A stretch of 63,040 nucleotides of DNA, counting the filler. It is 4 parts of 4 records of this genome, joined end to end, with 100 filler letters (N's around TTAATTAATTAA, not from the genome) between each part and the next. Parts side by side here need not be neighbours in the genome. Positions count along the whole stretch, not along the records: positions 14,581 to 40,774 come from DRR378314_303; 3 more parts are not named here. One strand, 5' to 3'. The position numbers were made by a program, and so were the translations under genes. Of this stretch, positions 4,201 through 39,232 are shown piece after piece. The stretch's first letter is position 1. Each line of letters begins with the position of its first letter. The notes under the pieces are model-generated. The model saw only the letters and a list, made by a program, of their open reading frames with translations. It was not told where the DNA came from and did no database searches.

Positions 4201-4232
4201 AAGACCGCTATTAAGTTCAGTAGTTTGGTGTC

Positions 4233-4676: not shown

Positions 4677-4697
4677 CCGCGTTCTCCTTGTGACTGC

Positions 4698-13321: not shown

Positions 13322-14431
13322 TTACTGCGTTGTGTCACCTTCTGGATTACGTGCGTTGTAGTATGCCTGCTCAGAAATCGCATGATAGTTTCCGACCTTA
13401 TCCTGGAAGGTACGGTACGACTCATAAATCCGTGTGCCCAGCTCGCTTGATTCAGCCAATTCAGCAATAACGTCTTCTGAATGCTCACGGGCCTGAGCCA
13501 ACACGTCGTCAGGAATACGGCGCAGTTCAACCTCATGCTCGTTGACCAACGTCTCCAACGCATCGTTATTACGCGCGGTGTATTCATCAAGCACGTTTGC
13601 ATTAATATCGCGCACTGCGGTCGTCAAAATAGCCTGTAAATCAGCGGGCAATTCGGCTAAGGCTTCTTCGTTGACGATGGTTTCAAACATCACCGTCGGC
13701 TCGTGCCAGCCAGGATAGTAGTAATAATCGGCAGCCTGATGCAGACCGAACGCTAAATCATTATAGGGGCCAATCCATTCCGTCGCATCAATGGCACCTG
13801 ACTGAAGTGATGTGAAGATTTCGCCACCCGGCATGTTAACAATCGCGACGCCCATACGGCTCATCACTTCACCACCTAAGCCTGGCATACGCATTTTCAG
13901 GCCATCAAGGTCCTCAATCGAATTGATTTCCTTGTTATACCAGCCACCCATTTGCACGCCAGAAGCACCCGCCACCATGACATCCACACCAAAAGGCTCG
14001 TAAACTTCGTTCCACAACTCCATGCCACCGCCAAAATGCAGCCAGGCATTCATTTCCTGTGCGTTCATGCCAAACGGCACGGCAGCGAAGAACTGTGCTT
14101 CAGGGGCTTTGCCCTTCCAGTAATAAGAAGCAGAGTGGCCAAGCTCAGCAGTGCCGTCAGACACAGCATCAAAGACCTCAAACCCAGGTACCAACTGGCC
14201 AGCGCCAAACACTTCAATGGTCAGGCGACCATCGGACATCTCGTCCACCAGTTGCGCGAGCCGCTCAGGACCCTGCCCCACACCTGGGAAGTTCTTCGGC
14301 CAGGAAGTGACCATTTTCCAGCGGAAATTTTCTTGTGCCTGAGCTTGATTATCAAAACTTGAAACCACCAGCAAACTAGTGGATAGAGCGGTTGTCATCG
14401 CAATGGCGACAGGTAAAGCATTGGCTTTCAT
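13322..14431 (-). CDS. TRAP transporter substrate-binding protein (TakP/keto-acid type)
   Basis: WKMVTSWPKNFPG, GHSASYYWKGK, KMRMPGLGG and YYYPGWHEP motifs. Confidence 0.88.
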   Translation of the reverse strand: MKANALPVAIAMTTALSTSLLVVSSFDNQAQAQENFRWKMVTSWPKNFPGVGQGPERLAQLVDEMSDGRLTIEVFGAGQLVPGFEVFDAVSDGTAELGHSASYYWKGKAPEAQFFAAVPFGMNAQEMNAWLHFGGGMELWNEVYEPFGVDVMVAGASGVQMGGWYNKEINSIEDLDGLKMRMPGLGGEVMSRMGVAIVNMPGGEIFTSLQSGAIDATEWIGPYNDLAFGLHQAADYYYYPGWHEPTVMFETIVNEEALAELPADLQAILTTAVRDINANVLDEYTARNNDALETLVNEHEVELRRIPDDVLAQAREHSEDVIAELAESSELGTRIYESYRTFQDKVGNYHAISEQAYYNARNPEGDTTQ

Positions 14432-14480
14432 ACATTAACCCTCTTGCTTCTATTATTACTGTTATAGGTAGGAGAAGGCC

Positions 14481-14580
14481 NNNNNNNNNNNNNNNNNNNN
14501 NNNNNNNNNNNNNNNNNNNNNNNNTTAATTAATTAANNNNNNNNNNNNNNNNNNNNNNNNNNNNNNNNNNNNNNNNNNNN
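14481..14580. other. Artificial contig spacer
   Basis: N-run/TTAATTAATTAA (stops in all six frames)/N-run, 100 nt. Confidence 0.98.
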
Positions 14581-14585
14581 CCGCC

Positions 14586-15770
14586 ATGCAGGCTCCGGCC
14601 GATATGCAGGCGATCGAGCCCGGTCTCTACCGCGGCACCTTTGAACCCGCCATGGACGGTAGTTGGCCGCTGACTCTAAAGATTGAGGCGCCGGGTATGC
14701 CAGCTCGGCAAATCAGCTTTGATTTGGCCGTCGGTCGCGAAGGCCTCCAACTGGCCTCCGGTGCCAGCCGAACCGACGGTGGCGGCATGGCCGAGGAGGC
14801 ACCACCGGGTACGGTGACCCTGGACAATCGTCGTCGCCAGTTGATCGGTGTGGAAACCGCCGAGGCACAAACCTTGGCTATGACCCGCGCCATCCGCGCG
14901 GAAGGGCGGATTGCCTACGACGATACCCAACTGGCGGACGTCAGCCTCAAGTTTGATGCCTGGGTCGGCGAGCTCTACGCCGATTACGTGGGGGTTTACG
15001 TGGAAAAGGGAGAGCCCCTGTTTACCGTTTATGGTCCGGCGCTGCTCGCCGCTCAGCAGGAGTATCTGCAGTTGAAGCGCCGCAGTGGCGCCTCACAAAC
15101 TTTGGTGACCGCCGCTCGAAAACGGCTTGCACTGTGGGACATGACCGACGCGGAAATCACCACCCTGGAAAAACGAGGAGAGCCCCTCGATTACGTCACC
15201 ATGCACGCGCCCATCAGTGGCACAGTGGTGGCCAAGAATGTGGTGGAAGGGACCGCCCACAAGGCCGGGATGACGCTTTTGCGTATTGCCGATCTCTCCC
15301 AGGTCTGGGTGGAGGCCGATATCTACGAGGGCGAACTGCCCCTGGTGACGGAGGGCATGCCCGTTACCGTGACGCTTCCTTATCTGCCCGGTGAACAGTT
15401 TGAGGGCCAAGTGGACTACATTTACCCCTATTTGGACGACGTCAGCCGTACGGGGCGAGTGCGCCTTAGCGTCGCTAACCCTGAAGGTCGTCTCAAGCCC
15501 AATATGTACGCCGAAGTGAAGCTTAAGGCCGATCTTGGGCAGCGAGTGGCCGTGCCGGAAGAGGCGGTAATTATCGCGGGTGAACTGCGTGTGGTGTTCG
15601 AGGACCTGGGAGAGGGTCGGCTGGCACCGCGCAAAGTGCAAACCGGTCAACGGGCCGGCGGTTACATCGAAATCATCGAGGGGGTCGAGGCGGGTGACCG
15701 CGTGGTCACCTCCGGTAACTTCCTGATCGCCTCCGAGAGCCGACTCAAAGGAGGCATGGAGCAATGGTAA
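14586..15770 (+). CDS. CusB-like RND periplasmic adaptor with N-terminal YtkA/FixH-like segment (5' truncated by gap)
   Basis: APISGTV, IADLSQVWVEADIYE, RLKPNMY and VVTSGNFLIASES motifs; overlaps the cusA-like start. Confidence 0.88.
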   Translation: MQAPADMQAIEPGLYRGTFEPAMDGSWPLTLKIEAPGMPARQISFDLAVGREGLQLASGASRTDGGGMAEEAPPGTVTLDNRRRQLIGVETAEAQTLAMTRAIRAEGRIAYDDTQLADVSLKFDAWVGELYADYVGVYVEKGEPLFTVYGPALLAAQQEYLQLKRRSGASQTLVTAARKRLALWDMTDAEITTLEKRGEPLDYVTMHAPISGTVVAKNVVEGTAHKAGMTLLRIADLSQVWVEADIYEGELPLVTEGMPVTVTLPYLPGEQFEGQVDYIYPYLDDVSRTGRVRLSVANPEGRLKPNMYAEVKLKADLGQRVAVPEEAVIIAGELRVVFEDLGEGRLAPRKVQTGQRAGGYIEIIEGVEAGDRVVTSGNFLIASESRLKGGMEQW

Positions 15771-18700
15771 ACGACGTACATAAGCATCCGCCCGCTCATC
15801 CCCCGGCCGAAGGGGAGGGGATTGGCTGGTTGCAGCGAATTATTGGCTATTGTGCCCGCAAACCCCTGATTACCTTGGTGGCCGTGCTTGCCCTGACCTT
15901 TGGCGGCTGGCAGGCGTTACAGCGGGCACCGTTGGATGCTATCCCTGACCTGTCAGATGTGCAGGTGATTGTCTTCACCGACTGGCCCGGGCGCAGCCCG
16001 GACCTGGTGGAGGACCAGATCACCTATCCTCTGACCACCTCCTTGCTGTCTGCGCCGGGAGTAAACTATGTGCGCGGCCAGAGCATGTTCGGCCTGTCGT
16101 TTGTCTATGTGATTTTCGACGATGGCGTGGACATGTACTGGGCCCGCTCGCGGGTACTGGAGTACCTCAACGGTGCCGCCGCCGAGTTGCCGGAGGGGGT
16201 CACTCCGACTTTGGGGCCGGATGCTACGGGTGTCGGTTGGGTCTACCAATATGCACTGAGAGATACGTCTGGCAACCACAGCCTGGCGGATCTGCGCTCA
16301 CTGCAGGATTTCAATTTACGCTATGCCCTGGAAGCGGTTGAAGGGGTCGCCGAGGTGGCCTCCATCGGTGGGTTCCAGCGTGAATACCAGATCAGTCTCG
16401 ACCCGAACAAACTCGCCTCTTACGACATCCCCCTCAAACGGGTCACTGAGGCGGTTGGGGACTCCAACCAGGATGTAGGTGGACGCATTCTTGAGGTGGC
16501 AGGCCACGAGCAGTTTATTCGCGGGCGGGGTTATGTGAAGTCCGTAGCGGATCTGGAAACAGTGGTGTTAAAAACCACGGCTGAGGGTGTACCGATCACG
16601 GTAAAAGACGTCGGTCACGTGGCATTGGGACCGGCTATGCAGCGCGGTCAGGCGGAGCTGGACGGCGAGGGCGTAGCCGTGGGCGGTATTGCGGTAATGC
16701 GTTATGGCGAGAACGCCCTGGAAGTTATTGACAAGGTCAAGCAGCGCCTGGAAGAGATCAAGCCCGGGCTCCCTGAAGGTGTCGAAATTGTGCCGGTCTA
16801 TGATCGCTCGATTTTGATCAACGAAGCCGTTGACACGCTGACCTCGACACTGATTAAGGAGATCCTGATTGTCTCCCTGATTATCGGCGTTTTTCTGTTA
16901 CACGTGCGCTCTACGCTGGTGGCCGCGATTACTCTCCCGGTAGCGGTGCTGATGTCCTTCATCCCCATGTATTTTCAGGGGCTGACCGTCAACATCATGT
17001 CTTTGGGCGGCATTGCGGTGGCCATTGGCGCCATGCTGGATGCGGCGATTGTCATTATCGACAATATCCACAAACGGTTGGCCCGGTGGGAGAGTGACGA
17101 CGCCGACCCCGAGGAAAAGGCCAAGTCCCGACGGGACGTGATTATTGAGGCCATGCAGCAGGTAGGCCCCAGCATCTTTTTCTCGCTGGCAATCATCACC
17201 ATCTCCTTTATGCCGGTGTTCGTCCTGGAAGGCACAGAAGGGCGCATGTTCAAGCCTCTGGCTTTTACCAAGACCTATTCCATGGCATTTGCGGCGTTCC
17301 TGTCCATCACTCTGGTGCCGGCCCTCGCGGTATGGCTGATTCGCGGCAAGATCCGTGCTGATCGCAGTAAGTTGAACCAGTGGCTGGTGGCTGCGTACCG
17401 GCCTGTGGTGGCTTTCGCCGCGCGTTTTCGGTGGGGAGTCATCGTGGGAGCGGTGTTGCTATTGCTGATCACGATCATTCCCTTCCGGCAATTGGGCAAC
17501 GAGTTTATGCCACCTCTGAACGAGGGCTCGGTTCTCTTTATGCCCACCGCGCTGCCGGGAATGTCCATTTCCGAGGCCACCCAGACCATGCAGACTATGG
17601 ACCGGATCATTGCCGACATTCCCGAAGTGGAGCATGTTTTCGGCAAGGTTGGTCGCTCCACCAGCGCGACCGATCCCGCGCCGTTATCCATGGTGGAAAC
17701 GGTCATTACCTTGAAGCCGGAGGACCAGTGGCGCGAGGGCATGACGTGGGACGGTCTGATTCAGGAGATGGACTCGAAACTCAAGTTTCCGGGAATGCCC
17801 AATATTTTTTGGATGCCCATACAGACTCGCACCGAAATGCTCGCGACCGGTATTCGTTCAGCGTTGGGCATCAAGGTGTTTGGTCCGGACCTGGCCACTA
17901 TCGAAAAAACGGGCATCGCCATTGAAAAAGCGTTGCAGGAGGATGAGCGCACCGCCGATGCCACCCGCAGCGCCTTTGCCGAGCGCAGCACCGGTGGGTA
18001 CTTTCTGGATTTCACCGTCAACCGAAGTGCTGCGGCTCGCTTTGGCCTCAACGTTGGCGATGTGGAACGGGTGATCATGGCGGCCATGGGGGGGACTGTG
18101 GTGTCGCAAACCGTGGAGGGGCGCGAGCGCTACAACATCCTGGTGCGCTACGCCCGGGATTACCGCGACAACGTGGAAGCGCTGGAGCGAGTACTGGTGC
18201 CCACTCCTTCCGGGGAGCAGATTCCCATCGCCCAGGTGGCGGACATTGAGTTTCAAACCGGGCCGCCTTCCATTCGCAGTGAGGACGGGCAACTTGTGGG
18301 ATTCGTCTTTGTGGACGTCAAAAGCGAAGTCGGTATTGCCGATTATGTCGAACAGGCCAAGCAGGTGGTTGGCGACCAGGTCGATGTGCCGGACGGTTAT
18401 CGGCTGGCTTGGGCGGGGCAGTTCCAGTATTTTGAGCGGGCCAAAGCCAAACTCCAATTGCTGGTTCCGATCACGCTGTTCCTGATTTTCTTCATGCTCT
18501 TTATGCACCGAGGCTCCCTCGTAGAGACCCTGCTGGTGATGCTGAGTGTGCCCATTTCGCTGAGCGGGGCCGTCTGGCTGATGTGGTGGCTGGACTTTAA
18601 CCTCAGTGTCGCCGTCTGGGTGGGCATGATTGCCGTTGCGGGGCTCGCCGTGGAGCTCGGGTTGCTGATGATGGTGTATCTGGATATCGCCTGGCGGGAC

Positions 18701-18997
18701 AGGGAGGCCGAGCGCCGACTCAATACCCGTGGAGATATGACCGAAGTCGTCCAGAGCGGCGCCGGCCAACGCATCCGGCCCATGCTGATGACCGGGCTGT
18801 CGACCTTTATCGGGTTGGTGCCGATCCTGTTCGCCAGCGGTACCGGCGCGGACGTGATGCAGCGCATCGCCGCGCCCATGGTCGGCGGGGTGATTTCTGC
18901 CCTGTTGATGGTGCTGGTGGTATACCCGGCAATCTTCATGCTATGGCGGGGACGCGGTCTGCCCAAGGGGGCACCGACACCACCGCTGAAAACTTAA
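15764..18997 (+). CDS. cusA: CusA/CzcA family heavy-metal RND permease
   Basis: LDAIPDLSDVQVI, YWARSRVLEYL, LGPDATGVGW and GADVMQRIAAPMVGG, typical of the Cu/Ag CusA clade. Confidence 0.9.
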   Translation: MVNDVHKHPPAHPPAEGEGIGWLQRIIGYCARKPLITLVAVLALTFGGWQALQRAPLDAIPDLSDVQVIVFTDWPGRSPDLVEDQITYPLTTSLLSAPGVNYVRGQSMFGLSFVYVIFDDGVDMYWARSRVLEYLNGAAAELPEGVTPTLGPDATGVGWVYQYALRDTSGNHSLADLRSLQDFNLRYALEAVEGVAEVASIGGFQREYQISLDPNKLASYDIPLKRVTEAVGDSNQDVGGRILEVAGHEQFIRGRGYVKSVADLETVVLKTTAEGVPITVKDVGHVALGPAMQRGQAELDGEGVAVGGIAVMRYGENALEVIDKVKQRLEEIKPGLPEGVEIVPVYDRSILINEAVDTLTSTLIKEILIVSLIIGVFLLHVRSTLVAAITLPVAVLMSFIPMYFQGLTVNIMSLGGIAVAIGAMLDAAIVIIDNIHKRLARWESDDADPEEKAKSRRDVIIEAMQQVGPSIFFSLAIITISFMPVFVLEGTEGRMFKPLAFTKTYSMAFAAFLSITLVPALAVWLIRGKIRADRSKLNQWLVAAYRPVVAFAARFRWGVIVGAVLLLLITIIPFRQLGNEFMPPLNEGSVLFMPTALPGMSISEATQTMQTMDRIIADIPEVEHVFGKVGRSTSATDPAPLSMVETVITLKPEDQWREGMTWDGLIQEMDSKLKFPGMPNIFWMPIQTRTEMLATGIRSALGIKVFGPDLATIEKTGIAIEKALQEDERTADATRSAFAERSTGGYFLDFTVNRSAAARFGLNVGDVERVIMAAMGGTVVSQTVEGRERYNILVRYARDYRDNVEALERVLVPTPSGEQIPIAQVADIEFQTGPPSIRSEDGQLVGFVFVDVKSEVGIADYVEQAKQVVGDQVDVPDGYRLAWAGQFQYFERAKAKLQLLVPITLFLIFFMLFMHRGSLVETLLVMLSVPISLSGAVWLMWWLDFNLSVAVWVGMIAVAGLAVELGLLMMVYLDIAWRDREAERRLNTRGDMTEVVQSGAGQRIRPMLMTGLSTFIGLVPILFASGTGADVMQRIAAPMVGGVISALLMVLVVYPAIFMLWRGRGLPKGAPTPPLKT

Positions 18998-19086
18998 TGC
19001 GTCATCGCCGTCCGGTACCGATCCGTACTTTCGGTACCGGGCGGCGGTACTTTCGGTACTCTACTTACTTTAACTGGAGGCAACCC

Positions 19087-19323
19087 ATGAAAAATTTGAT
19101 GCGTTCATTTTTACTTTTAGCATTTACATTTCTGGCAAACACCGCCTTGGCTGCCGAACAAGCTTCGGCTGGGATGATGCAAGACTCCGGCATGATGGGC
19201 GCTGGTTTTATGTTGGCGTGTATCGTCTTGCTGATCCTGCTGTTCATTGCCTTGGTTCTGGCGATCCTGTCCATGATTAAGTACCTGTTCTTCAGTAAAT
19301 CCAAAAAAGGAGACCGTTCATGA
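19087..19323 (+). CDS. Small Met-rich membrane protein
   Basis: GGAGG RBS, signal-like N-terminus, GMMQDSGMMG and one TM helix; ATGA overlap with the next gene. Confidence 0.65.
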   Translation: MKNLMRSFLLLAFTFLANTALAAEQASAGMMQDSGMMGAGFMLACIVLLILLFIALVLAILSMIKYLFFSKSKKGDRS

Positions 19324-19790
19324 CAACCTTTCTGCGTTGGAAAAGGCGATACACATCGATCCTCAGAGGGGCGTTGATGGTGACCGTTTACTTGGCCAGC
19401 TTGCCGTCGGTGCAGGCCGCCGAAACCGTTGATGCGACGCTGTACAAAAATCCGAGTTGCCGGTGCTGCGACCAATATGCTGCGTACTTGCGCCAGTACG
19501 ACTATGAGATCAAGGTGACTGAAACCCCCAACTTGAGGCAGTTCAAAGCCGAGCATGGCGTACCGTCCCGCTTACAAAGTTGTCATACCATGCTGCTCGA
19601 TGGGTACGTGATCGAGGGTCATGTTCCGGTGGGGGTTATTAACAAGCTCCTGGACGAACGGCCAGAGATCCGCGGTGTATCGCTTCCCGGCATGCCCCAG
19701 GGGTCGCCGGGAATGTCTGGGCAAAAGCGGGAGCCTTTTGTGATTTATGCGATTACGGATGACGAAATGTCGATCTACGCCACTGATTGA
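19320..19790 (+). CDS. DUF411 (CopG-like) periplasmic metal-binding protein
   Basis: YKNPSCRCC, SCHT, IEGHVP and PGMPQGSPGM motifs. Confidence 0.9.
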   Translation: MTTFLRWKRRYTSILRGALMVTVYLASLPSVQAAETVDATLYKNPSCRCCDQYAAYLRQYDYEIKVTETPNLRQFKAEHGVPSRLQSCHTMLLDGYVIEGHVPVGVINKLLDERPEIRGVSLPGMPQGSPGMSGQKREPFVIYAITDDEMSIYATD

Positions 19791-19806
19791 AACAGAGGTC
19801 ACCGTC

Positions 19807-20049
19807 ATGGCGAAGAGCGAGAAAGAGAACGGTCCGGGGCGAGGCGCCCGAGTGCGCAATTTGCGTCAGTGGTTCAGGCGCCGTCCCATTGCCGTCGCGG
19901 TCTGCCTGGTGGCATTGATAGGTCTCGCGCTCGGTTGGAACTGGCTGGCGGCGAGCGGGTTGCTCGTCGTGGCCCTGGTTGGCCTGGGGTGTCTGATGAT
20001 GTGCGTTTTGGGCATGCACAGCGGGCACGATAAAGGAGACGAAAACTAA
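19807..20049 (+). CDS. Small two-TM membrane protein (CLMMC...GMH motif)
   Basis: GAGG RBS and LGWNWL...LGCLMMCVLGMH, a type seen in metal-resistance clusters. Confidence 0.6.
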   Translation: MAKSEKENGPGRGARVRNLRQWFRRRPIAVAVCLVALIGLALGWNWLAASGLLVVALVGLGCLMMCVLGMHSGHDKGDEN

Positions 20050-20122
20050 ACGCTCCGAAAACCGGCGTTTCCCATGGAATGTCGGGAGAGCCCAACCACC
20101 GCACCTGTGAGGGTATCAAACG

Positions 20123-20651
20123 ATGAATGAACTTATGGGCCATGCGGGGCTATGGGGCATTGCACTGATTGTTATTGCATTGGTCTCCTGGATGTTTTAT
20201 CGGTATTTTGCGCCGAAAAGCTGGCGTGAATGGGCGGGTGCCGGGTTGGTGCAAGCTTTCATCATCGCACTTTATGCCGAGATGTACGGCTTTCCACTGA
20301 CGATTTATCTACTGGTGCGGTTCTTCGGGCTGGATAGCGATTACGTTAGCGCCAACCTGTGGGCCACCCTGATAGGGTTGGGTGAAACCGGCATGCTGAT
20401 CTCCATGTTGCTTGGCTATGCACTCGCTTTCATCGGCATTGGCCTACATTGTTCTCGGTTGGGTTGTTTCCGCTTATTGTATTTGCCTACTACCGGCTGG
20501 CGCAGCGAGAGGAGCGGCAAGTGATGGAGCGGTTCGGTGACGCCTACAGGGCCTACCAGCGACGGGTTCCATGTTCCTGCCTGGTTGGCGTCAATGGCGG
20601 CAGCTCGCGGATGCCTCGCTGGACGAAACCGATCACAAAAATTCTGAATGA
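20123..20651 (+). pseudogene. Isoprenylcysteine carboxylmethyltransferase-family membrane protein, internally deleted and frameshifted
   Basis: The N-terminus (ALYAEMYGFPLTIY) is in one frame and the C-terminal EERQVMERFGDAYRAYQRRVP in another after about 20445. The central GxY..vRHPqY motif is absent, and a second shift near 20570 gives VP/MFLP. Confidence 0.75.
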
Positions 20652-20825
20652 TGTTTCGCGAGTCAGATTCCCCGGCTAGGGAAGATTTGCGACTCTGGCG
20701 AGAATGTCTAGACTTGAAACTAGCGTTTCGTCTAGGCATCCATGGCAGGGGGCCCGAAGCCCTTTGGCAATAGCAGATTAAAATTTCAGCCTCTGAGGCA
20801 GAGTAAACTTGAGAAGTTAGAAGTT

Positions 20826-21188
20826 ATGAGCGCTACACAACAATACTTACTGCTGCTGGGATTGGCACTGGGTATCCTGGGCGCGGTGTTAAGCCTGTAT
20901 GGTTTAGCCCGTAGTGTGGGTCCAACACGGCAGGAACCTGGCAAGGATGTGCCGGCAAGCGCCGGAGTGCTGTCGCGGGCTCCGGTCTGGGGACGTTATC
21001 ATGCGCGCTATTACGGTTATGCATTGCTGTTTTTGGCGTTCGATATGGAGATGGCCTACATGTACCCTTGGGCGGTTGTGTTCAAGGAAGTAGGGCTGGT
21101 TGCTTTACTTGACATGGGCGTGTTTCTTGCGATTCTCTTTCTTGGGTTGCTTTACGGATGGAGTCAGGGCGCTCTGAGGCGGCAATGA
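20826..21188 (+). CDS. NuoA-like membrane subunit
   Basis: [23 protein letters not shown] and C-terminal W..GAL; three TM helices. Confidence 0.88.
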
Positions 21189-22828
21189 TGACCGAGGTCG
21201 CAACGACACTTGCAGGCGCACGCAAAGGGCGTCCATCTATCCTGCGAAGGTGGGTTGGGCAGGCTCTGGCGCGCAATTTGAGCTGCCTGGTAGTCCCTGG
21301 GCCGGAAGTGGCCCTGGCGCATGGGCTGAACCTGGCGGCCGCAGACATGCGCATCGCCGCCACGCCGCGCGATGCCACTGTGCTCCTGGTTGTCGGTGAG
21401 CTATCTCAGAAGTTGGACGAGGCCACCGCAGTGCTCTATGCCCAGATGCCTAGGCCGCGAGCTATTCTAGTGCTCGGTGGGTCAGAACCTTCGTCTTTGC
21501 CTAAAGCTGACGTTTCCGCGGATCTCTCACAAACCGAACTGATGGAGGCGGCCACTCGGCTGCAGCGGTTGCTGGCTGAAGACGCCTTCGCCGCCTCGCC
21601 TGACGATTTTGACTCATCAATCCTGCAAACCAAAACTGAGTACGTCTGCCCCATGCACCCGGAAGTGGTGGAGGACGAACCAGGTAGCTGTCCCAAATGC
21701 GGCATGGATTTGGTGGCGCGCGAAGCCGGCGGCGACGCGGATGCTGGGGAGCACGACCATTCCGGCCACGGTCACGGCGATCATGATCACGGAGACCACG
21801 ACCACGGCAGCTCGGGATTCATGTCCATGGTCGAGGTTACCAAAGACCTGCCTCGCAGCGCTGACGGTTTGGCAATGGACTGGCTTGAGGTGCCCTTCGG
21901 CCCCTGCTTTCCCGGTTTGCCGGGAGGATTGAGACTGACCTTGACGCTCGACGGTGACGGGGTGACCGAGGGCCAAGCGACATCTCTGGTAGCTATGGGC
22001 ACCCCCTCTGAAGAGGTGGCGGTCGAAACCTTCATCGAGCGCCTGGCGGCGGCCACGCCGTTGGCACCGGTAAGTTACCGCCTCTTGGCCTGCCGCGCTA
22101 TCGAGCAGGCGGCTGGTCTGGAGCCAGATCCGGCCGTCGAGCGGGGCCGGGCGGCCGCTCTTGAGCGAGAGCGCATCGCCAGCCATCTGGGCTGGCTGGC
22201 CCAGTTGGGCCGCCAGCTCAGCTTTGTCTGGTTGACACGTCGTGCGGCGGCTTTGCAATTGGAAACCCAGCGCGCCGACGGGGAGCAGCTTGTTGTCCTG
22301 CGGCCGGCGCTGCAGGCGCTCATCGCACGGCTCGAGCATACGCCCCTTCTCAAAGCGCGCTTGAAAGGCATCGGCGCTTTGCCCCACGGCTCCCAGGATC
22401 TAAGAGGCCCGGTGGCACGCGCCTCCGGCCGGACCGAAGATGCCCGCCAGGCGGACGCAATGTATTGCGAGCTGGGTTTCGAGCTGTACATTGAGGGCGC
22501 TGGGGACGCCTGGGCGCGTTTCCGGCAGCGGCATGTTGAGATCGTGACCAGTCTCGATCTCGTAGAGGCCGCCGGAGACCCTGAGCTCCCCAAGCTGCGA
22601 GCCATCGACAGCCCTTCCGGAACGGGGGAGGCGACCGTGGAAACGCCGCGCGGCCGCTCCACATTGCAGCTGACCCTGGAGCGAGGGCAGGTGGTATCGG
22701 TCGAGCTGGACGGCGCCTGCCGCCAACATATCGGCCTGGCCGCCGACCTGGTCGAAGGTCAGGAATTGGGTGATGCCTTGGTGGCGGTCGGGTCACTGGA
22801 TCTCTCGCCCTGGGAGGTGAGCTCATGA
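21185..22828 (+). CDS. Fusion of degenerate NuoB-like domain, heavy-metal-binding domain, His-rich linker and degenerate NuoD-like domain
   Basis: NuoB-like [13 protein letters not shown]...[55 protein letters not shown]; NuoD-like FGP...[37 protein letters not shown]. Confidence 0.85.
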
Positions 22829-23721
22829 CTGTCGCCATAGTGTTGCTCACACTGTTGGTTGGCGCTTGGTTACTGGCTGTGATTGAGGCCTGGCTCACGA
22901 CCGGCCGCCTGCGACCGGTCGCCCCGCTGCTTGCGGGCCTGTCGCACCTGGGCCGCGAGTCCATCTTGGCGCGCAAGCCCGACCGGCTGTTTTTCGAGAC
23001 CGCACCAGTGTTGTTGCTGGTGGTGGCGGTGCTCGGTGCTGCCGTACTTCCGCTGACGCCGGATCTGGTCATTGCTGATCTGGCCACCGGCGCCTTGTTT
23101 CTCAACGCGGTGCTTGCCTATGTGTTGGTATCGCTGATCATGGCTGGTTGGGGCCCGAACGGCGCCTACGCGATGATAGGTGGCTGGCGTTTTCTCGGCC
23201 AACTTATCGCCTACTCCATGCTTATCGTCATGCCCATTACGGCGACCGCCATGCGCGCCGAGTCCCTGTTGAACAGCGTCATCGTCGAGTCTCAGGCCGG
23301 TTTATGGAACATCGTTTACCAACCGCTGGGGTTTGTGTTGTTTTTCATCGCCGCTATGGCGTTGGCGTTCCGCTCACCCTTCGACCTGCCTACCGCACCC
23401 GGCGAGTTAGCCGGCGGGGTCGACGCCGAATACACCGGCGTGCGCCTGACAGTGTTGCGGCTAGCACGATTGGTGATGCTAATCACCCTGTCTGCCGCGA
23501 CTACGGTGTTCTTTCTCGGTGGCTGGCAGGGGCCGCTTTTGCCGCCCTGGGCCTGGAGCCTGATCAAGACTCTGGCGGTAGCCGTATCGATGTTGCTGGT
23601 TGGCTACTATTTGCCGCGTATTCGCGAGGCGGATCTGCTGGGTTGGTGCTGGAAGTTTGGAATCCCCCTGGCGCTGCTCAATATTTTGATAGTCGGATTG
23701 CTCATCCTGGTGGTGCCCTAA
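22825..23721 (+). CDS. NuoH-like membrane subunit
   Basis: [41 protein letters not shown] and LPRIR...CWK motifs. Confidence 0.88.
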
Positions 23722-24287
23722 TGGTTGCACAGGCTTTTTTTGTCGGCGTATTCGGGCTGGCTGCGATCGGTTTCGGTGTGGCGGTGTTCCGTACCGCGTC
23801 TATGGTGCGTTCTGCGCTGGCGCTGCTGTTTTCACAGGCCGCCGTGGGCTGCATGTTTCTGGCCATGCAGGCCGAATTTCTGGGCGTGCTGCAGATTATG
23901 ATGATGGCCACCGAAATGAGCATCATGGCCATCTTCATGGTGATGTTCATGATGGACCCCGGTGGGCTTGGCGGGATGGATATGAGCCACCAGAAGCGCT
24001 TTTCGATTGGTGCTGGAGCCATTGCCGCCACCACCGCCATCTCGGTAGCGCTGTTCTCTGATTGGGGGCCGATATTCGCCGAGGCGCCGGATGCTGCAAT
24101 GCAAACGCGGGAGCTCGGTTTTGAAATGTTGGATCGCTCTATGCTGATTTTCGAGACCGCCGCTATCACCATCCTGACCGCAATGATCGCGGCTACGGCA
24201 GTAGCGATTCCGGTGCGCCAGCCCGGCGTCGACACAGGAAAGCTCGACAAGGAAAACGGTGATAAAGAACAGGAGGCTTCAAAATGA
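23721..24287 (+). CDS. NuoJ-like membrane subunit
   Basis: SALAL...AEFLGVLQI...FMVM and FETAAITILTAMIAA motifs; ATG overlaps the nuoH-like stop. Confidence 0.85.
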   Translation: MVAQAFFVGVFGLAAIGFGVAVFRTASMVRSALALLFSQAAVGCMFLAMQAEFLGVLQIMMMATEMSIMAIFMVMFMMDPGGLGGMDMSHQKRFSIGAGAIAATTAISVALFSDWGPIFAEAPDAAMQTRELGFEMLDRSMLIFETAAITILTAMIAATAVAIPVRQPGVDTGKLDKENGDKEQEASK

Positions 24288-24595
24288 CTCCGGTACTGAT
24301 CCTGGCACTTCTGACCGGCGCCATTCTCTTTGGTGTCGGTATCTATGGCGCGCTCTCGCAGACTAACCTGGTCATGATAATGATGGGAGTGGAGCTGATT
24401 CTGGCGGGCGCGCTGGTGAACCTTGTGGCCTTCTGGCGCTTTCTGCATCCGGAGGTCTACGCCGGACAGATGTTTGTGCTGGTGGTAATGACGGTTATGG
24501 CAGTGGAGATGGCCGTCGGTTTCGGCGTCGCAATTGCACGCTTCCGGGCCAAGGGCTCGGTCGAGATGGAAGAGGCCGGAGACCTGCAGGGATGA
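24284..24595 (+). CDS. NuoK-like membrane subunit
   Basis: MGVELIL, GQMFVL and AVEMAVG, with both conserved Glu present. Confidence 0.9.
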   Translation: MTPVLILALLTGAILFGVGIYGALSQTNLVMIMMGVELILAGALVNLVAFWRFLHPEVYAGQMFVLVVMTVMAVEMAVGFGVAIARFRAKGSVEMEEAGDLQG

Positions 24596-26502
24596 GTGAC
24601 CTGGTCTTGCCCATAGTGTTCCCTTTGCTTGCGGCCGCTGCCATTCTGCTGCTGCGCCGGGGAGCGGCTATTTTGGCGCTGGTCGGGGTCGCACTTAGTT
24701 TGGCGGCAAGCCTTAAGCTTTTGGGGGCGGTCGCCAGTGGTGACTCCGCAACCCTGCTGCTGCCAGGCTTGCCGGATCTACCCTTGCGGTTGACCGCCGA
24801 GCCGTTAACCGCGTTGCTCAGTGTAGTGGTTGCCGCCGTGGCGACTTGCGTGTTGATTTATTCGGTAGGCTATATGAAGCGGGAGTCCGGCCTACCCCGC
24901 TTTTTTGCCGTTATGTCCTTGTTTGTTGCCGCCATGCAGGCCCTGGTTCTGGCCGGCGACTGGGTTCTGGTGCTCGCCGCCTGGGAGCTGATTGGCTTGT
25001 GCAGTTACCTGCTGATCGGTTTCTGGTTTCAGCGGCCCGAAGCGGCGAACGCCGCGAGCCGTGCCTTTCTCTACACCCGCAGTGCCGATCTTGGTCTGTA
25101 CATCGCGATATTCACCCTCATGGGGGCGGCGGGCACCAGCGAGATCGCCGCCACCCTGAATGTCGACGGAGACACCGCCGTGGCGGCCGGGCTTTTGTTG
25201 CTGCTCGCTATCATGGGCAAGTCTGCCCAGATCCCCCTCCAGGACTGGCTTATGCGTGCCATGGCGGGGCCCACACCGGTGTCGGCGTTGTTGCACTCGG
25301 CGACACTGGTGGCAGCAGGTGCCATTTTACTGATCCGTGTAGCGCCGCTGCTGACGCCGGAAGTTTTGCTCGCTATTGGGCTGGTGGGCGGTATTACTAC
25401 CGTGGCGGCAGGTCTGATTGCGCTTGCCGAACGTGACCTCAAGCGCCTGCTGGCGGCCTCAACCGCCAGTCAGTATGGTCTGATGCTGATTGCGGTCGGC
25501 GCCGGGGTGCCGCTGGCGGCGTTGTTGCATCTGCTTGCCCATGCCGCCATCAAGAGTGGCCTGTTTTTAGCAGCCGGTGAATTTCAGCATGCGCGCGGCG
25601 GCACGGCTCTGGAGCGCTTGCGTGGTGTAGGGCGCGTCCGGCCCTGGACTTTCTTCGGCTTCGCATTGGCAGCGCTGGCCCTAGTGGGTGCTCCACCGCT
25701 GAGCGGCTTCTTCTCAAAGGACGCGGTGATCGCCGCCGCACTGTCCGCGCCAAGTGTCGCCTGGCTCGCTCCCCTGGCACTGGCGGGCACACTGCTGACC
25801 GGTGCCTACTTGGCTCGCGCGCTGCGGCTGCTATGGCACGAGCGCGAGGAGGGTGAAAACGAAAACCGTTCGGTGGCCGGCGCCCGCTGGATGGGGCTGG
25901 GAGTATGGGCCCTGGTAATCCCAGCCGTCTTCCTGGGTCTGACCTTCGGTCCCATTGAAGCCTTGTTGGGTTTGCCCGGCCCTGGAGACCATGGCACTAC
26001 CGCCATGCTGTTCGGGCTTCTCGCGGCAGCGGCCGGTCTGGCGCTGGGCTGGCTGGTACCGGCATCTCGCTTGCTTGGCCCTTTCCACCCCTGGGCACAA
26101 TCGGGGCTGGTCATCGCCGGAGGGCTCTCCTTCTGGATCGGCCGACCAGCCATGGCCATTGCCTACGGCTGCCAGCGCCTGGAGCGTGGCCTATACGCGA
26201 CCGTCCTGAGTGTCGGCCGCGGAGGCTTCTTCATTGCTCGAGGTTGCGGGCGCGTGGAACGAGGTTTGTATGCGGTGGTGTTGGGTACTGGCCGTGCCAG
26301 CTTGGCCGTGGCGCACTTGGTTCGGGTAGGAGATGAGCGCCGAATCGACGGCCTGATCTTCGCCCTGGTGGCCAGCGTACGAGGCTGGGGAGACCGCGCC
26401 CGCGTCCTGCAAAGCGGTTGGATTCACCACAGTCTGGCTATCAGCGCCGTGGTTACCGCCGTAACACTGATCATACTGCTTTCAGCCTCGTTGAGTTTCT
26501 AG
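24592..26502 (+). CDS. NuoL/MrpA-like antiporter subunit
   Basis: WELIGLCSYLLIGFW, GKSAQIPLQDWL, GPTPVSALLH and GFFSKD motifs. Confidence 0.92.
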   Translation: MSDLVLPIVFPLLAAAAILLLRRGAAILALVGVALSLAASLKLLGAVASGDSATLLLPGLPDLPLRLTAEPLTALLSVVVAAVATCVLIYSVGYMKRESGLPRFFAVMSLFVAAMQALVLAGDWVLVLAAWELIGLCSYLLIGFWFQRPEAANAASRAFLYTRSADLGLYIAIFTLMGAAGTSEIAATLNVDGDTAVAAGLLLLLAIMGKSAQIPLQDWLMRAMAGPTPVSALLHSATLVAAGAILLIRVAPLLTPEVLLAIGLVGGITTVAAGLIALAERDLKRLLAASTASQYGLMLIAVGAGVPLAALLHLLAHAAIKSGLFLAAGEFQHARGGTALERLRGVGRVRPWTFFGFALAALALVGAPPLSGFFSKDAVIAAALSAPSVAWLAPLALAGTLLTGAYLARALRLLWHEREEGENENRSVAGARWMGLGVWALVIPAVFLGLTFGPIEALLGLPGPGDHGTTAMLFGLLAAAAGLALGWLVPASRLLGPFHPWAQSGLVIAGGLSFWIGRPAMAIAYGCQRLERGLYATVLSVGRGGFFIARGCGRVERGLYAVVLGTGRASLAVAHLVRVGDERRIDGLIFALVASVRGWGDRARVLQSGWIHHSLAISAVVTAVTLIILLSASLSF

Positions 26503-26517
26503 AGGATAGCCATACTC

Positions 26518-27987
26518 ATGCTACCAATTGTATCCCTTACTCTGTTTTTGCCGCTCGCCGGTGCCGCCCTGATTCTGGCCCTTCCGGGGCCGACGGCGCG
26601 AACCGTACACAGCATTGGTATTGGCACCGCCAGTTTAACTCTGGTCGGGGCGCTGGCCATGTGGCTGGAGGGAGTGAGCGGCGCGGGCTTTTCCCAAGTC
26701 GAAGAGCTCGAATGGATTCCGGCTATCGGTGCCGCCTACCGGGTCGGTGTGGACGGCATCAGCCTGCCCCTGGTGCTGCTGAGTGCTATGCTGTTTTTGG
26801 GGGCATTCATCTATGCTTCGTCGCTGCGCGAGCGCCCGCGCGCCTACGTGGCTTTGGTTCTGCTTCTAGAAACTGCAGCAATCGGCACCTTTGCCGCCCT
26901 CGACGGAATTCTGTTCTATGTGTTCTTCGAAGTCTCCCTGGTGTCGATGTATTTCATGATTGCCGGTTGGGGCCATGAGGACCGGCAGCGGGCGGCTCTG
27001 ATGTTTTTTATCTACACGCTTCTGGGCAGCCTGCCGTTATTGCTCGCCATCCTGGGGCTTTACCTCGGCAGTCCCGATCCCAGCTTCGACATGCGCGCCT
27101 GGATCGCTAATCCACCGCTGGAAGGGGCTGCGGCCATGTGGGCGCTGGTCGCCATGCTGGTTACTTTTGCGGTCAAGATCCCCGCCGTACCGTTGCACAC
27201 TTGGTTACCTGCCGCCCACGTCCAGGCGCCGACTGTCGGCAGTGTCATCCTGGCCGGCATCATGCTGAAATTTGGAACCTACGGGCTGGTTCGCTTCGCC
27301 CTACAAATGACTCCCGAGGCGTTCCACGAAGCCGGCGTCGTTGTCCTGGTGTTCGGTGTCATCGGCGCGCTCTATGGCGCCTTCGCCGCTCTGGCGCAGA
27401 CCGATCTCAAGCGTCTGGTGGCCTATACGTCGATTAACCACATGGGCTATGTGATCATCGGCGTCGCCGTGGCTGCACTGGCTCTGGACCCTTCAGTGCG
27501 TGCCACCGCACTCGATGGCGCCGTCCTGCAGATGTTCAGTCACGGTTTGGTTACCGGTGCATTGTTCTTCCTGGTGGGGATGATTCAGGAGCGCGCACAT
27601 ACTCGCGAGATGGGCGAATTTGGCGGCCTACTAAAAACGGTTCCGCTGTTGGGCTGGTCCTTTATGTTGGCGGCCTTTGCGTCGCTGGGCCTGCCTGGTC
27701 TGGCGCACTTTCCAGGGGAGTTCCAGATATTTCTGGGTACGCTTGGTAGTGTGCCCGCCGCCGTCGTGTCGATACTGGGCCTTGCTATCATTGCGGGTAC
27801 CTTTCTCAAAGCGATTCGCGAAACCTTTCTTGGCGAGCCTCAGTCACGTTGGCATAGCATGCCCGACCTGAGTTTGCGCGAAGTGCTCGCGCTGGCGCCA
27901 TTACTGGTTCTCACCGTAGCTACCGGGGTGGCACCATCCTGGGTGCTGGACACCATTCACCGGACTACCTCGGCGTTGGTGCTATAA
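26518..27987 (+). CDS. NuoM-like antiporter subunit
   Basis: VGVDGIS, FFE, VKIPAVPLHTWLP.AHVQAP, DLKRLVAY and LGLPG..F.GEF motifs. Confidence 0.92.
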   Translation: MLPIVSLTLFLPLAGAALILALPGPTARTVHSIGIGTASLTLVGALAMWLEGVSGAGFSQVEELEWIPAIGAAYRVGVDGISLPLVLLSAMLFLGAFIYASSLRERPRAYVALVLLLETAAIGTFAALDGILFYVFFEVSLVSMYFMIAGWGHEDRQRAALMFFIYTLLGSLPLLLAILGLYLGSPDPSFDMRAWIANPPLEGAAAMWALVAMLVTFAVKIPAVPLHTWLPAAHVQAPTVGSVILAGIMLKFGTYGLVRFALQMTPEAFHEAGVVVLVFGVIGALYGAFAALAQTDLKRLVAYTSINHMGYVIIGVAVAALALDPSVRATALDGAVLQMFSHGLVTGALFFLVGMIQERAHTREMGEFGGLLKTVPLLGWSFMLAAFASLGLPGLAHFPGEFQIFLGTLGSVPAAVVSILGLAIIAGTFLKAIRETFLGEPQSRWHSMPDLSLREVLALAPLLVLTVATGVAPSWVLDTIHRTTSALVL

Positions 27988-29351
27988 TGGGGCGTGATCT
28001 GGCATTGTTAATTCCCGAGATCGCTGTGCTGCTAGCCGCAGTCAGCGCGCTGATTGCAGAAATACTGCGCAGGCCTCGAGCTTCGCTGGCTCTCGCCATG
28101 CTGGGCCTGTTCGTCGCCACGGGACTGACCATACGTTTGGTGGGTACAGACACCACCGTATTCGGTGGCAGTTTTCGGATAGACGCGCTCAGCATCTGGG
28201 CAAAGCTGATTTTATTGCCGGCGACGATGCTGTCTTTGCTGCTGGCGAGCGCGGAAGTGCGCGGCACCGTGCGTGAGGGCACGGTCTACAGTTTATTATG
28301 TTTAGCTACCGTTGGTGCTCTTATTCTAGCCGGCGCCGGCGATATGATGTTTCTGGTTCTGGGCCTGTTGCTCACCAGTTTGGCGACCTTTGCTCTGGTG
28401 GCCTACCCGGACGACGATCCTGCCACCGAAGCCGCCATGAAATACTTTGTGTTTGGTTCGGTGGCTGGCGCGGTGATGATCTTTGGTCTCACGTACTGGT
28501 TCGGTGCCGCCGGCTCCACAATGATTGCCGACCTTGAGGGTACGGAGGCCATCCCTTTGGCTGTCATATTCGGTTTGGTGGCGGTTATTGTCGGTCTTGG
28601 CTATAAAGCATCTCTGGTTCCATTTCATTTTTGGGTGCCGGATGCCTATGAAGGTGGGCCCTTATCGGTTGCAGCCTTCCTGTCTGTGGTGCCCAAGGTG
28701 GGCGCGTTGTTTGCGCTAACTCAAGTGTTTCGTGACCTGCCTTCCGAAAGCGGTGGGCCCGCTGTTATCGCGGGACTAGCCGTACTGAGTATGACCTACG
28801 GTTACCTTGCCGCGTTGGTGCAGGATAATGTTGTTCGACTGCTGGCTTACTCATCTATTGCCCAGTCCGGGTACTTCCTCCTGGGTATTGTGGCGCTGGG
28901 CGAAAGTTCTTTTGCTTTGCCATCAATCATTTTTTTCGCTGCCGCGTACGCCGCTATGAATCTGGGGGCTTTCGCCGTTATCGCTGCGGTTGGGCGTACG
29001 CTAAACGATTTCAACGGCCTGGGGCGCGCTCAACCACTGGTGGGAGTCGCCATGGTACTTTTCCTGCTCTCGCTGGTAGGCATTCCGCCACTCGCTGGTT
29101 TCGTTGGCAAATTCCTGCTCTTTGCCGCTGCTATCCATGCGCAGTTTACCTGGTTGGCTGTAGTGGCGATTCTCAACAGTGTGCTCGCTCTCGCAGTATA
29201 TATGCGTATTATCGTGCCTATGTATAGGCAAGAAGAGGTGCCTCATGACGCTGCTAGTATTTGGATCGATATCGTGACGCTAACGGCGCTGTTAGCCACG
29301 GTTACTATTGGACTGGCCGCCCAGTTCTTCTTTGTGAAGTCGATGGCATAG
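27987..29351 (+). CDS. NuoN-like antiporter subunit
   Basis: EAAMKYF, YKASLVPFHFWVPDAYEG, RLLAYSSIAQ and GIPPLAGFVGKF motifs. Confidence 0.92.
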   Translation: MGRDLALLIPEIAVLLAAVSALIAEILRRPRASLALAMLGLFVATGLTIRLVGTDTTVFGGSFRIDALSIWAKLILLPATMLSLLLASAEVRGTVREGTVYSLLCLATVGALILAGAGDMMFLVLGLLLTSLATFALVAYPDDDPATEAAMKYFVFGSVAGAVMIFGLTYWFGAAGSTMIADLEGTEAIPLAVIFGLVAVIVGLGYKASLVPFHFWVPDAYEGGPLSVAAFLSVVPKVGALFALTQVFRDLPSESGGPAVIAGLAVLSMTYGYLAALVQDNVVRLLAYSSIAQSGYFLLGIVALGESSFALPSIIFFAAAYAAMNLGAFAVIAAVGRTLNDFNGLGRAQPLVGVAMVLFLLSLVGIPPLAGFVGKFLLFAAAIHAQFTWLAVVAILNSVLALAVYMRIIVPMYRQEEVPHDAASIWIDIVTLTALLATVTIGLAAQFFFVKSMA

Positions 29352-38133: not shown

Positions 38134-38218
38134 TGATAACAAATGCATCAAATTCGTTCCGGCCCTATGGGCCCCCACCGGGCGCCCTAGTCGGACACCG
38201 TTTATGCAAGCGTTATCT
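38134..38218 (+). repeat. attC site 1
   Basis: R'' TGATAAC and R' GTTATCT; L boxes TGCATCAAA/TTTATGCA with one extrahelical base. Confidence 0.88.
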
Positions 38219-38236
38219 GTAAAGTAGACACCGAAG

Positions 38237-39207: not shown

Positions 39208-39232
39208 AATAAAAAATAGGATTTAGGATTAA

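Follow-up and report, generated by a model that had tools for sequence, protein, structure and literature searches.

The window analysed here is a stretch of 63,040 nucleotides in which four parts from four records of one genome are joined end to end, with 100 filler letters between each part and the next; positions 14,581 to 40,774 come from DRR378314_303. This part carries an eight-gene operon on the + strand (20826-29351), identified from the open reading frame (ORF) listing and Pfam matches, in which nuoA is followed by a gene for a fusion of NuoB-like, heavy-metal-binding (HMBD) and NuoD-like domains and then by nuoH-J-K-L-M-N (Table 1). A complete complex-I-type membrane arm (NuoA, H, J, K, L, M and N) is encoded, with the fusion as the one soluble subunit, and neither the Pfam matches nor the ORF listing place a nuoC, nuoI or nuoE/F/G gene in the operon. 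At five of the seven junctions the stop codon of one gene overlaps the start codon of the next; nuoL and nuoM are separated by a 15-nt gap, and the final stop base of nuoM (27987) is the initial start base of nuoN. The eight genes are translationally coupled. The original prediction described this gene set correctly, and went on to propose an undescribed, metal-linked machine repurposed from complex I, a proposal that the features reported below, read from sequence, support.

The N-terminus of the fusion gives a weak match to NuoB/NDUFS7 in a phmmer search of the PDB (approximately residues 42-113, E ~2e-3), and the NCBIfam NuoB models also match; its PF01058 score of 16.6 bits lies below the cut-off. 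The references used for NuoB and NuoD were the canonical nuo operons of genomes that also carry the variant operon. In the alignment with host NuoB, the CC motif of cluster N2 is gone and the GSC...GCPP loop with the other two N2 cysteines is deleted. The NuoD/NdhH/MbhL-like part (approximately residues 229-556, best E 2e-11 in the PDB sequence search, partial Complex1_49kDa in Pfam) has lost the quinone site, with HPxxHG of the beta1-beta2 loop replaced by CFPGLPGG, so that both histidines are missing, and the tyrosine motif LDY replaced by PLAP. The Ni-Fe ligands are likewise absent, both large-subunit CxxC motifs (N- and C-terminal) being replaced by non-Cys residues in the alignment to MbhL. 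An AlphaFold2 model of the fusion, calculated from 25 family members, has a predicted local distance difference test score (pLDDT) of 86.8 and a predicted template-modelling score (pTM) of 0.83, and is disordered only in a His-rich stretch (residues 192-223, pLDDT <50); its top Foldseek matches are NuoD, HycE and MbsL chains (E 2e-15 to 5e-15, target TM 0.55-0.76). Since the N2, quinone and Ni-Fe ligands are lost while the fold stays NuoD-like, the label "redox-dead" that had been given to the operon is correct.

In place of redox ligands, the fusion carries metal-binding elements. The HMBD is a zinc ribbon that matches the N-termini of copper P-type ATPases in the PDB sequence search, and relatives contain from 1 to ~10 HMBD repeats with His-rich linkers. 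The linker that follows ends in an FMSM...M motif placed just before the first NuoD strand; in the family alignment M224 is invariant and F221, M222 and S223 are at least 90% conserved. This motif is also kept in members without an HMBD, which retain the His/Asp-rich linker. NCBIfam has no model for the fusion, the best score being 66 bits against a cut-off of 360.

Table 1. Features of the operon and of the genes 5' of it, with positions counted along the window.
Feature	Position	Strand	Evidence
NuoA-like	20826..21188	+	PF00507 (Oxidored_q4) 1.2e-24; alignment
Soluble fusion subunit, 547 aa (ORF open from 21158, 556 aa)	21185..22828	+	Pfam, PDB search, alignments, model
NuoB-like domain without cluster N2 ligands	21239..21607	+	PDB and NCBIfam NuoB matches; alignment with host NuoB
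HMBD, CPxH...CPxCGM	21614..21724	+	PF19335 53.7 bits (above the gathering score, 23.6); PDB 8ovl and 3rfu; pLDDT 82-91
His/Asp-rich disordered linker ending in FMSM...M motif	21725..21877	+	family alignment; pLDDT <50
NuoD/HycE-like domain, two large deletions	21878..22825	+	alignments; Foldseek
NuoH-like, 298 aa	22825..23721	+	PF00146 (NADHdh) 2.2e-57; 7nyh_H 1.3e-47
NuoJ-like, 10.6% Met (start 23718 or ATG at 23721)	23718..24287	+	PF00499 (Oxidored_q3)
NuoK-like, 8.7% Met	24284..24595	+	PF00420 (Oxidored_q2)
NuoL-like antiporter subunit, full length	24592..26502	+	PF00361 (Proton_antipo_M) and PF00662 (Proton_antipo_N)
NuoM-like antiporter subunit	26518..27987	+	PF00361 4.2e-68
NuoN-like antiporter subunit	27987..29351	+	PF00361; alignment to Paracoccus NuoN
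cusB-like membrane-fusion protein	14586..15770	+	Pfam HlyD_D23 5.9e-78; CusB hairpin domain HlyD_D4
cusA/czcA-type heavy-metal resistance-nodulation-division (RND) pump	15764..18997	+	ACR_tran 1.8e-229; NCBIfam TIGR00914 1074.7 bits, cut-off 701
Small protein: signal peptide, Met-rich stretch, one transmembrane helix	19087..19323	+	translation
DUF411 (CopG-like) periplasmic protein, CxCC motif	19320..19790	+	PF04214 1.3e-24; translation
80-aa small membrane protein, Cys/Met/His tail	19807..20049	+	sequence; conserved with the cluster in G001 and L001
ICMT/PEMT-like membrane methyltransferase remnant, 133 aa	20123..20524	+	tblastn to L126; Pfam PEMT/ICMT on full-length homologue

The membrane subunits were compared between 12 variant operons and 5 canonical operons of host genomes. 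The claim that residues of the ion path are mostly retained stands for NuoL, NuoM, NuoK and NuoA and does not extend to NuoN, which has lost the Glu of transmembrane helix (TM) 5, or to NuoH, which has lost several acidic residues. NuoL and NuoM retain the TM5 Glu and the TM7/TM8/TM12 Lys/Glu: NuoL keeps its TM5 Glu, its TM7 and TM12 Lys and 18 canonical-invariant charged residues, and NuoM its key Glu and Lys and 18 of 25 such residues. The TM7, TM8 and TM12 Lys of NuoN are kept; its TM5 Glu is Leu in the window, and Leu, Val or Ala in every locus where the motif search located the segment. NuoH, whose nearest solved chain is E. coli NuoH (7nyh_H), has lost 17 of 26 canonical-invariant charged residues, including the equivalent of E. 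coli Glu157, after which a new Met is found.

The core of the membrane arm is rich in methionine. Variant NuoJ contains 9.0-11.0% Met, compared with 4.0-5.0% in canonical NuoJ (3 host sequences), and variant NuoK 8.7-11.7% compared with 3.0-5.0% (5 sequences); in NuoA, H, L, M and N the Met content is below canonical, so the enrichment is confined to NuoJ and NuoK. TM3 of variant NuoJ has, at the place of the conserved canonical Tyr, an invariant run of Met plus an extra Glu (QIMMMATE). Both conserved Glu residues of NuoK are kept and are bracketed by Met (MTVMAxEM), and the Asp/Glu pair of NuoA is kept and Met-flanked (FDMEM), with the canonical Cys/Glu TM1-2 loop replaced. Start codons excluded, Met, His or Cys residues that are invariant in the variant operons and gained relative to the canonical ones number 29 in NuoA, H, J and K, 12 in NuoM, 4 in NuoL and 1 in NuoN. 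In the metagenome loci, the NuoJ, NuoK and NuoA motifs are found again in each copy of the genes, a few regular-expression misses apart, and those of NuoJ and NuoA are present on alphaproteobacterial and Rubrobacter plasmids. The operon was placed relative to Nuo, Mrp and Mbh by a ranking of PDB E-values, a rough substitute for phylogeny, in which complex I chains give NuoL, M and N better scores than MrpA or MbhH do; NuoL matches complex I NuoL at 4.9e-72 and MrpA at 3.5e-49, and the best matches of NuoM are ND4/NuoM at 2e-82.

Host-wide checks were made in the nearest genome, G001, an Alcanivorax genome that is 99% complete and carries the operon with 100% protein identity. Here the fusion is the sole PF00346 match, PF00329 has no match, and PF01058 has none besides the sub-threshold one inside the fusion; NuoI is absent from the operon, and no genome-wide search for it was made. 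Further PF00361 genes in G001 are two at one separate locus, with frames of 959 and 512 aa that are read as Mrp-like from their lengths alone, and the sole PF01512 match is one 842-aa ORF outside the operon, by a guess from its length RnfC-like. By these searches G001 has no complex I other than the operon. A canonical nuoH is present in each of the other 10 genomes of the sample that carry the operon, at >400 bits in nine and as contig-end fragments in G259. Judged by gene content, the operon is an extra, paralogous system, because those 10 genomes also hold the canonical gene, and in Alcanivorax it stands without a true complex I. Partner subunits supplied in trans cannot restore ordinary NADH:quinone activity, since the N2 and quinone ligands are themselves lost.

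The fusion belongs to a sizeable family. A word-index search found >1000 clusters at 90% identity with both PF19335 and PF00346, the only names on which were "heavy metal-binding domain-containing protein" and "Ni,Fe-hydrogenase III large subunit", and an exhaustive search found 162 clusters at 50% identity with E <=1e-30. The full-length fusion occurs in 11 of 400 evenly sampled gammaproteobacterial genomes, the other 48 matches being partial and nearly all of the HMBD segment alone, and in 4 of 401 genomes sampled across the phylum. A metagenome scan gave 324 relatives, of which 80 loci were retained. A contig scan with the fusion alone drew its patterns mostly from the HMBD and His-rich stretches, and 77 of its 80 loci were therefore unrelated HMBD proteins; the true relatives were L001-L003 only. 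By tblastn the fusion was also detected on 12 plasmids, 4 of them conjugative, from Sulfitobacter (4), Paracoccus (3), Rubrobacter (2), Roseovarius (1), Nitratireductor (1) and Thioclava (1). Rubrobacter belongs to the Actinomycetota, and plasmid carriage thus spans two phyla. The NCBI pipeline names the plasmid copies "NADH-quinone oxidoreductase subunit A/H/J/K/M/N".

In every locus examined, the gene order A-fusion-H-J-K-L-M-N is unvarying as far as the contig reaches. NuoK is 79-93% and NuoA 71-88% identical across lineages in which the fusion is only 45-65% identical. The ratio of non-synonymous to synonymous substitution rates (dN/dS) is 0.05-0.23 for all eight genes (Nei-Gojobori, against four relatives); the operon is under strong purifying selection, and relaxed selection is not seen. 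Compared with L174, dS is 1.13 in nuoN and 0.09-0.38 in the other seven genes, and in L184 the L, M and N subunits are 100% identical to those of the window, with a fusion only 83% identical. The ancestry of the operon is thus mosaic, and recombination between Alcanivorax lineages is likely. On the Roseovarius indicus plasmid (L249), ISKra4 transposases and a Tn7-like set (TniQ, TniB and a Mu-type transposase) follow the operon at 22013-28263, and insertion sequences also flank it on Sulfitobacter and Paracoccus plasmids; these flanking genes fit transfer as a mobile unit.

In the window, the operon is preceded, in order, by cusB, cusA, a gene for a small Met-rich protein, the DUF411 gene, a gene for an 80-aa membrane protein and a short ICMT/PEMT-like ORF, which agrees with the earlier placement of the operon downstream of cusBA-like and DUF411 genes. 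That it is embedded in a metal island is true only of a block of ~6 kb, with cusBA and the small genes, plus the operon itself; the wider flanks are housekeeping genes, with TRAP transporter parts upstream and YdjM, alcohol dehydrogenase and others downstream. The CusA/CzcA RND pump and the CusB adaptor of CusCBA are both present, and the CusC outer-membrane factor and CusF chaperone are not among the genes of 13322-20826, no genome-wide search for them having been made. The Met-rich protein is listed as an ORF from 18943 with a likely start Met at 19087 and has no Pfam or NCBIfam match, and none of the three small proteins upstream of the operon has an NCBIfam model. The ICMT/PEMT-like ORF has 133 aa in the window and identically in G001, compared with 232-267 aa in relatives (L126:13797-14495, L195:8689-9492); the lost C-terminal part seems to run on in another frame within 20123-20680, and the gene is probably frameshifted or truncated. 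A promoter scan of the + strand gave a single sigma-70-like site, upstream of cusB, and none before nuoA. Also observed were an inverted repeat spotted by eye at ~20706-20736, a short N run at about 14525-14536 in the region upstream of cusB, and a stretch (38001-40000) with a G+C content of 0.42, compared with 0.55-0.69 around it, where the ORFs lack Pfam matches and one has weak AAA-ATPase-like matches; this stretch may be a small foreign insertion.

Neighbouring genes were clustered for 39 loci, comprising 8 genome loci and 31 metagenome loci in which the upstream flank is at least 4 kb long and the fusion is <99% identical to that of the window; L119 and L125, with short flanks, and window-identical loci were left out. 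A multicopper oxidase (MCO) is a neighbour in 16 of the 39 loci, CopB, a CusS-type kinase and a response regulator in 15 each, and an ICMT-like protein in 9, and an APC-family permease lies directly upstream in 16. The recurrent string is a divergent cusS-cusR pair followed, on one strand, by copA(MCO)-copB-permease-(small gene)-operon. The permease of this string belongs to the APC superfamily (AA_permease_2), has ~450 aa and lies on the same strand between copB and the operon (L171-L176, L183, L184, L192, L193, L195, L196, L198, L204, L236). In L221 and L225, an HMA-bearing P-type ATPase (P1B-ATPase) is found 1.2-1.8 kb upstream on the same strand. Linkage to cusBA, among relatives that are not identical, is seen only in this Alcanivorax lineage and in one metagenome locus, L169. 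When the chromosomal loci were grouped at >=90% NuoH identity into 18 lineages and tallied by eye, structural copper or heavy-metal genes stood beside the operon in 7.

Five of the 12 plasmid matches were opened, and metal genes were found within 11-14 kb in all five. The Roseovarius plasmid has MCO, CopB, CDF and an azurin-like protein, with the Tn7-like genes downstream; the Rubrobacter tropicus plasmid has a P-type ATPase, a metal-sensitive regulator, a copper-binding protein and nuoA, contiguous on one strand; the Paracoccus plasmid has a P-type ATPase; the Sulfitobacter plasmid has a copper-binding protein and CusA; and the Nitratireductor plasmid has MerR, MCO, DUF1775 and CopD. A survey of neighbourhoods for consistent linkage to metal genes had been proposed for the operon, and its outcome in plasmids and chromosomal lineages favours such a link, with the operon accompanying copper-resistance genes in marine bacteria.

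Other genes recur near the operon. A ~395-aa flavoprotein with a Pyr_redox_2 domain, which also weakly matches the "Nterm_to_SelD" family and type III SQR, lies on the same strand 25-160 bp upstream of nuoA in 5 of the 39 loci (L123:7297-8484, L124:11411-12595, L126:11401-12594, L201 and L211). Two genomes of one family have, near the operon, a fusion of 1140-1166 aa that joins a molybdopterin oxidoreductase with an Fe4S4 domain to a class-V aminotransferase (L128:3805-7227, L123:3477-6977). A P-II family protein (107 aa, PF00543) adjoins nuoA upstream in the Alloalcanivorax-type loci (L002:209-532, L003, L171, L184). In L194, from 2171-5559 onward, a second NuoL-like gene (622 aa, Proton_antipo_M/N), then ORFs of 507 and 477 aa and an ORF that clusters with the P-II-like gene lie just upstream, and this gene set may be a DAB-like module.

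The literature search found no characterisation of this complex-I-like family. For the HMBD, it brought up only a plant paper, of limited relevance, in which the domain is equated with the MxCxxC motif. In Marinobacter atlanticus CP1, a "nuoADHJKL" cassette (ACP86_11540-11570), which includes a "NiFe-hydrogenase III large subunit", interrupts a copper-resistance cluster and increases in step with the cop genes when the electrode is at 160 mV (Eddie et al. 2021, PMC8233155). In the accessible text of that report, the authors only speculate on energy from copper redox chemistry or on cofactor supply, and report no function. Marinobacter members of the family bear the Joint Genome Institute (JGI) name used for the large subunit of this cassette and, judging from that name and from the published description, the cassette appears to be of the same family. 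It would appear, then, that the family has been noticed once in print, through this apparent homologue, and never characterised.

Taken together, these observations make it highly probable that the operon encodes a non-redox, metal-handling complex tied to copper homeostasis. What such a complex would do is suggested by Mrp, where the cation occupies a double cavity between MrpA-C (the NuoJ homologue), MrpC (the NuoK homologue, with the two Glu positions of complex I) and the TM5 Glu of MrpD (the NuoN homologue), and where the Na+ exit path coincides with the E-channel of complex I (Steiner and Sazanov 2020, PMC7419157). The positions remodelled in the operon, namely the NuoK Met, the Met run and Glu in NuoJ TM3 and the TM5 Glu removed from NuoN, are those of this cation site. 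Thioether-rich sites, such as those of CusA, CusF and Ctr1, favour Cu(I) and Ag(I). Because the remodelled positions coincide with the Mrp cation site and thioethers favour these ions, Mrp-like exchange on a complex I chassis is suggested, and a proton-driven, Mrp-like exporter of Cu(I)/Ag(I) has, by analogy, about an even chance of being correct. The fuller version is put forward a little more tentatively: the operon would represent a fourth functional branch of the complex I/Mrp/membrane-bound hydrogenase superfamily, a Cu(I)/Ag(I) exporter driven by the proton motive force (pmf), with its quinone cavity and E-channel re-lined with Met, that has spread on plasmids and islands among Gammaproteobacteria, Alphaproteobacteria and Actinomycetota.

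In this exporter, the tether formed by the HMBD, the His-rich linker and the FMSM motif would catch cytoplasmic Cu(I) and hand it into the former quinone cavity at the interface of the fusion, NuoH and NuoA. From there the ion would follow what was the E-channel, now lined with Met and Glu, as far as a site where NuoJ, NuoK and NuoN meet, the place at which Mrp binds Na+, and would pass out to the periplasm. Inward proton flow through NuoL, M and N, as in Mrp, would power export, and neighbouring periplasmic systems (CusBA, CopAB, CopG-like) would complete the removal. We infer the substrate, direction, stoichiometry and route of this transport.

Several observations weigh against this reading. 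Among the 18 chromosomal lineages, 5 have only MerR or two-component regulators beside the operon and 6 have no recognisable metal gene in the fetched flanks, and some recurrent neighbours are unexplained: the SQR/NDH-2-like flavoprotein (5 loci), a fatty-acid cis/trans isomerase (5) and the APC-family permease (16). The HMBD is missing from many family members. The Met-lined channel is proposed from homology of positions, not from geometry; 12 of the invariant Met/His gains sit in NuoM; and the loss of the NuoN TM5 Glu could equally be weakened coupling. Three HMA-bearing ORFs of ~850 aa are present in G001, and a further pump would be redundant because the genome already has these ATPase-sized ORFs. 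As for expression, at least half of the words sampled from the operon occur in each of 13 RNA-labelled public runs, and the contigs of four of these runs cover the operon, which is presence in RNA libraries and not proof of transcription; a contig depth of ~40 for the operon compared with 1-3 for cusA in X1 is a weak hint only.

Among the other readings, it is unlikely that the operon encodes a metal-regulated monovalent cation/proton antiporter, or a device for pmf or pH homeostasis, that moves Na+, K+ or H+ as Mrp does, with the HMBD/His-rich fusion only sensing copper and gating the machine when metal stress occurs; the original prediction had put forward this reading too. Met is a poor ligand for these three ions, and yet it is invariant around the NuoK and NuoA carboxylates and in NuoJ TM3. 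Retention of all proton-path residues in NuoL and NuoM would suit such an antiporter, as would the parallel with the architecture of Mrp (PMC7419157) and the position of the metal-binding pieces on a flexible, sensor-like linker (pLDDT <50); however, HMBD-less members are counted as keeping the core, seen in their fusion sequences as the FMSM motif, and G001 already has the two other PF00361 genes that are Mrp-like by length alone.

About as improbable is another cargo or direction, whether a different thiophilic or His-binding metal (Zn, Ni, Co, Cd or Hg), metal uptake, or, in place of detoxification, the loading of Cu(I) into cuproproteins of the periplasm, for example the multicopper oxidase encoded nearby. 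Ni and Zn binders typically have His/Asp-rich linkers, and CDF, MerR, MerB and CzcA-type genes occur among the neighbours; against this, the thioether-rich paths and the CopA-type CPxH...CPxC ribbons point to Cu(I)/Ag(I), and among the neighbours that could be named, most are specific to copper (CopB, MCO, CopD, DUF411, and a CsoR-like regulator accompanied by a copper-binding protein). The frequent position of the operon directly after copA(MCO)-copB would be in keeping with cuproprotein loading. Bacteria are not known to need import of copper into the cytoplasm.

A redox-driven pump with a new electron input, from the upstream SQR/NDH-2-like flavoprotein or from copper redox chemistry, is less probable again. 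The close, same-strand position of the Pyr_redox_2 protein in 5 of the 39 loci and the molybdenum oxidoreductase fusion in 2 speak for it, but the flavoprotein is missing from the window and from most loci. With no Fe-S ligand in the NuoB part, no NuoI and the quinone His/Tyr lost, neither a path for electrons nor a site for their acceptor can be seen. The quinone potential and that of Cu(II)/Cu(I) lie, moreover, too near each other to power a multi-proton pump. In favour of a redox role, Ehr complexes are suspected to dock onto oxidoreductases that are not known (PMC6349859), and Eddie et al. see copper redox reactions as a possible energy source (PMC8233155). That the operon is a decaying, functionless remnant of complex I can be set aside as having next to no probability: all redox ligands and several conserved NuoH and NuoN residues are lost, but purifying selection acts on all eight genes, the gene order is unvarying, NuoK is highly conserved, new invariant motifs have been gained, and plasmids carry the operon in two phyla.

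Whatever its cargo, the operon encodes a complete complex I membrane arm, together with its B/D adapter, whose link to electron transfer has been lost in evolution. If the export reading is true, it would be a class of cytoplasmic Cu/Ag exporter that works without ATP and without an RND trimer, the known set of metal-resistance determinants in marine habitats and in those exposed to metal would change, and the complex would offer a natural redox-free model in which a long-standing question, the coupling of the Q-site end to the antiporter subunits, is testable with a simple ion substrate. The annotation "NADH-quinone oxidoreductase" causes hosts and plasmids to be wrongly credited with complex I in metabolic reconstructions, as would happen for Alcanivorax G001, which appears to have no real one.

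Compared with known systems, the operon is placed by its gene content and motifs outside complex I, NDH-1, group 4 hydrogenases, Ehr as usually described, Mrp and DAB, because the defining features of each are lacking. With complex I it shares all seven membrane subunits in canonical order, the NuoB and NuoD folds, and antiporter subunits closer to those of complex I than to Mrp or Mbh chains; it differs in having no N-module, NuoC, NuoI, N2 ligands or quinone His/Tyr, in the fusion of B and D through a metal-binding linker, in its Met-rich NuoJ and NuoK and Met-flanked NuoA, and in the lost NuoN TM5 Glu. The large subunit without Ni-Fe ligands and the antiporter-like subunits recall Ehr as defined in PMC6349859, and MbhL and MbsL are among the best sequence or fold matches of the D domain. 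However, Ehr, MBS and MBH, set apart here by the secondary description in that source, are thought to be coupled to a redox reaction in the cytoplasm and to retain Fe-S subunits (PMC6349859), whereas the operon has a NuoB part without cluster ligands, no NuoI- or ferredoxin-like gene and the full membrane set of complex I. The large subunit lacks the N- and C-terminal CxxC of group 4 [NiFe] hydrogenases (Ech/Hyc/Hyf/Mbh), and the operon contains no DabA or Cup partner gene of the kind found in DAB and CupA-type CO2-hydrating modules.

CusA and CusF handle Cu(I) and Ag(I) through methionine. With CopA and CusCBA the operon shares gene clusters and an HMBD of the CopA N-terminal kind; it has no homology to their transport cores, and its energy would come from the pmf through antiporter subunits, not from ATP or an RND trimer. 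The M. atlanticus cassette, compared by description only, resembles it in complex-I-like genes flanked by and co-regulated with copper-homeostasis genes; the accessible text of the paper mentions no loss of redox ligands, HMBD fusion, Met-rich core or M and N subunits (PMC8233155). Mrp (CPA3) also performs no redox chemistry, sets antiporter-like subunits beside NuoK- and NuoJ-like elements, and binds its cation in the place that is remodelled in the operon (PMC7419157). All eight genes of the operon are assigned to Nuo families, with no MrpB/E/F/G-type gene; NuoA, NuoH and the peripheral B/D module are present, which Mrp lacks, and Met stands where Mrp has His and carboxylate cation ligands. 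The complex is built from complex I and, by analogy, most likely works like Mrp.

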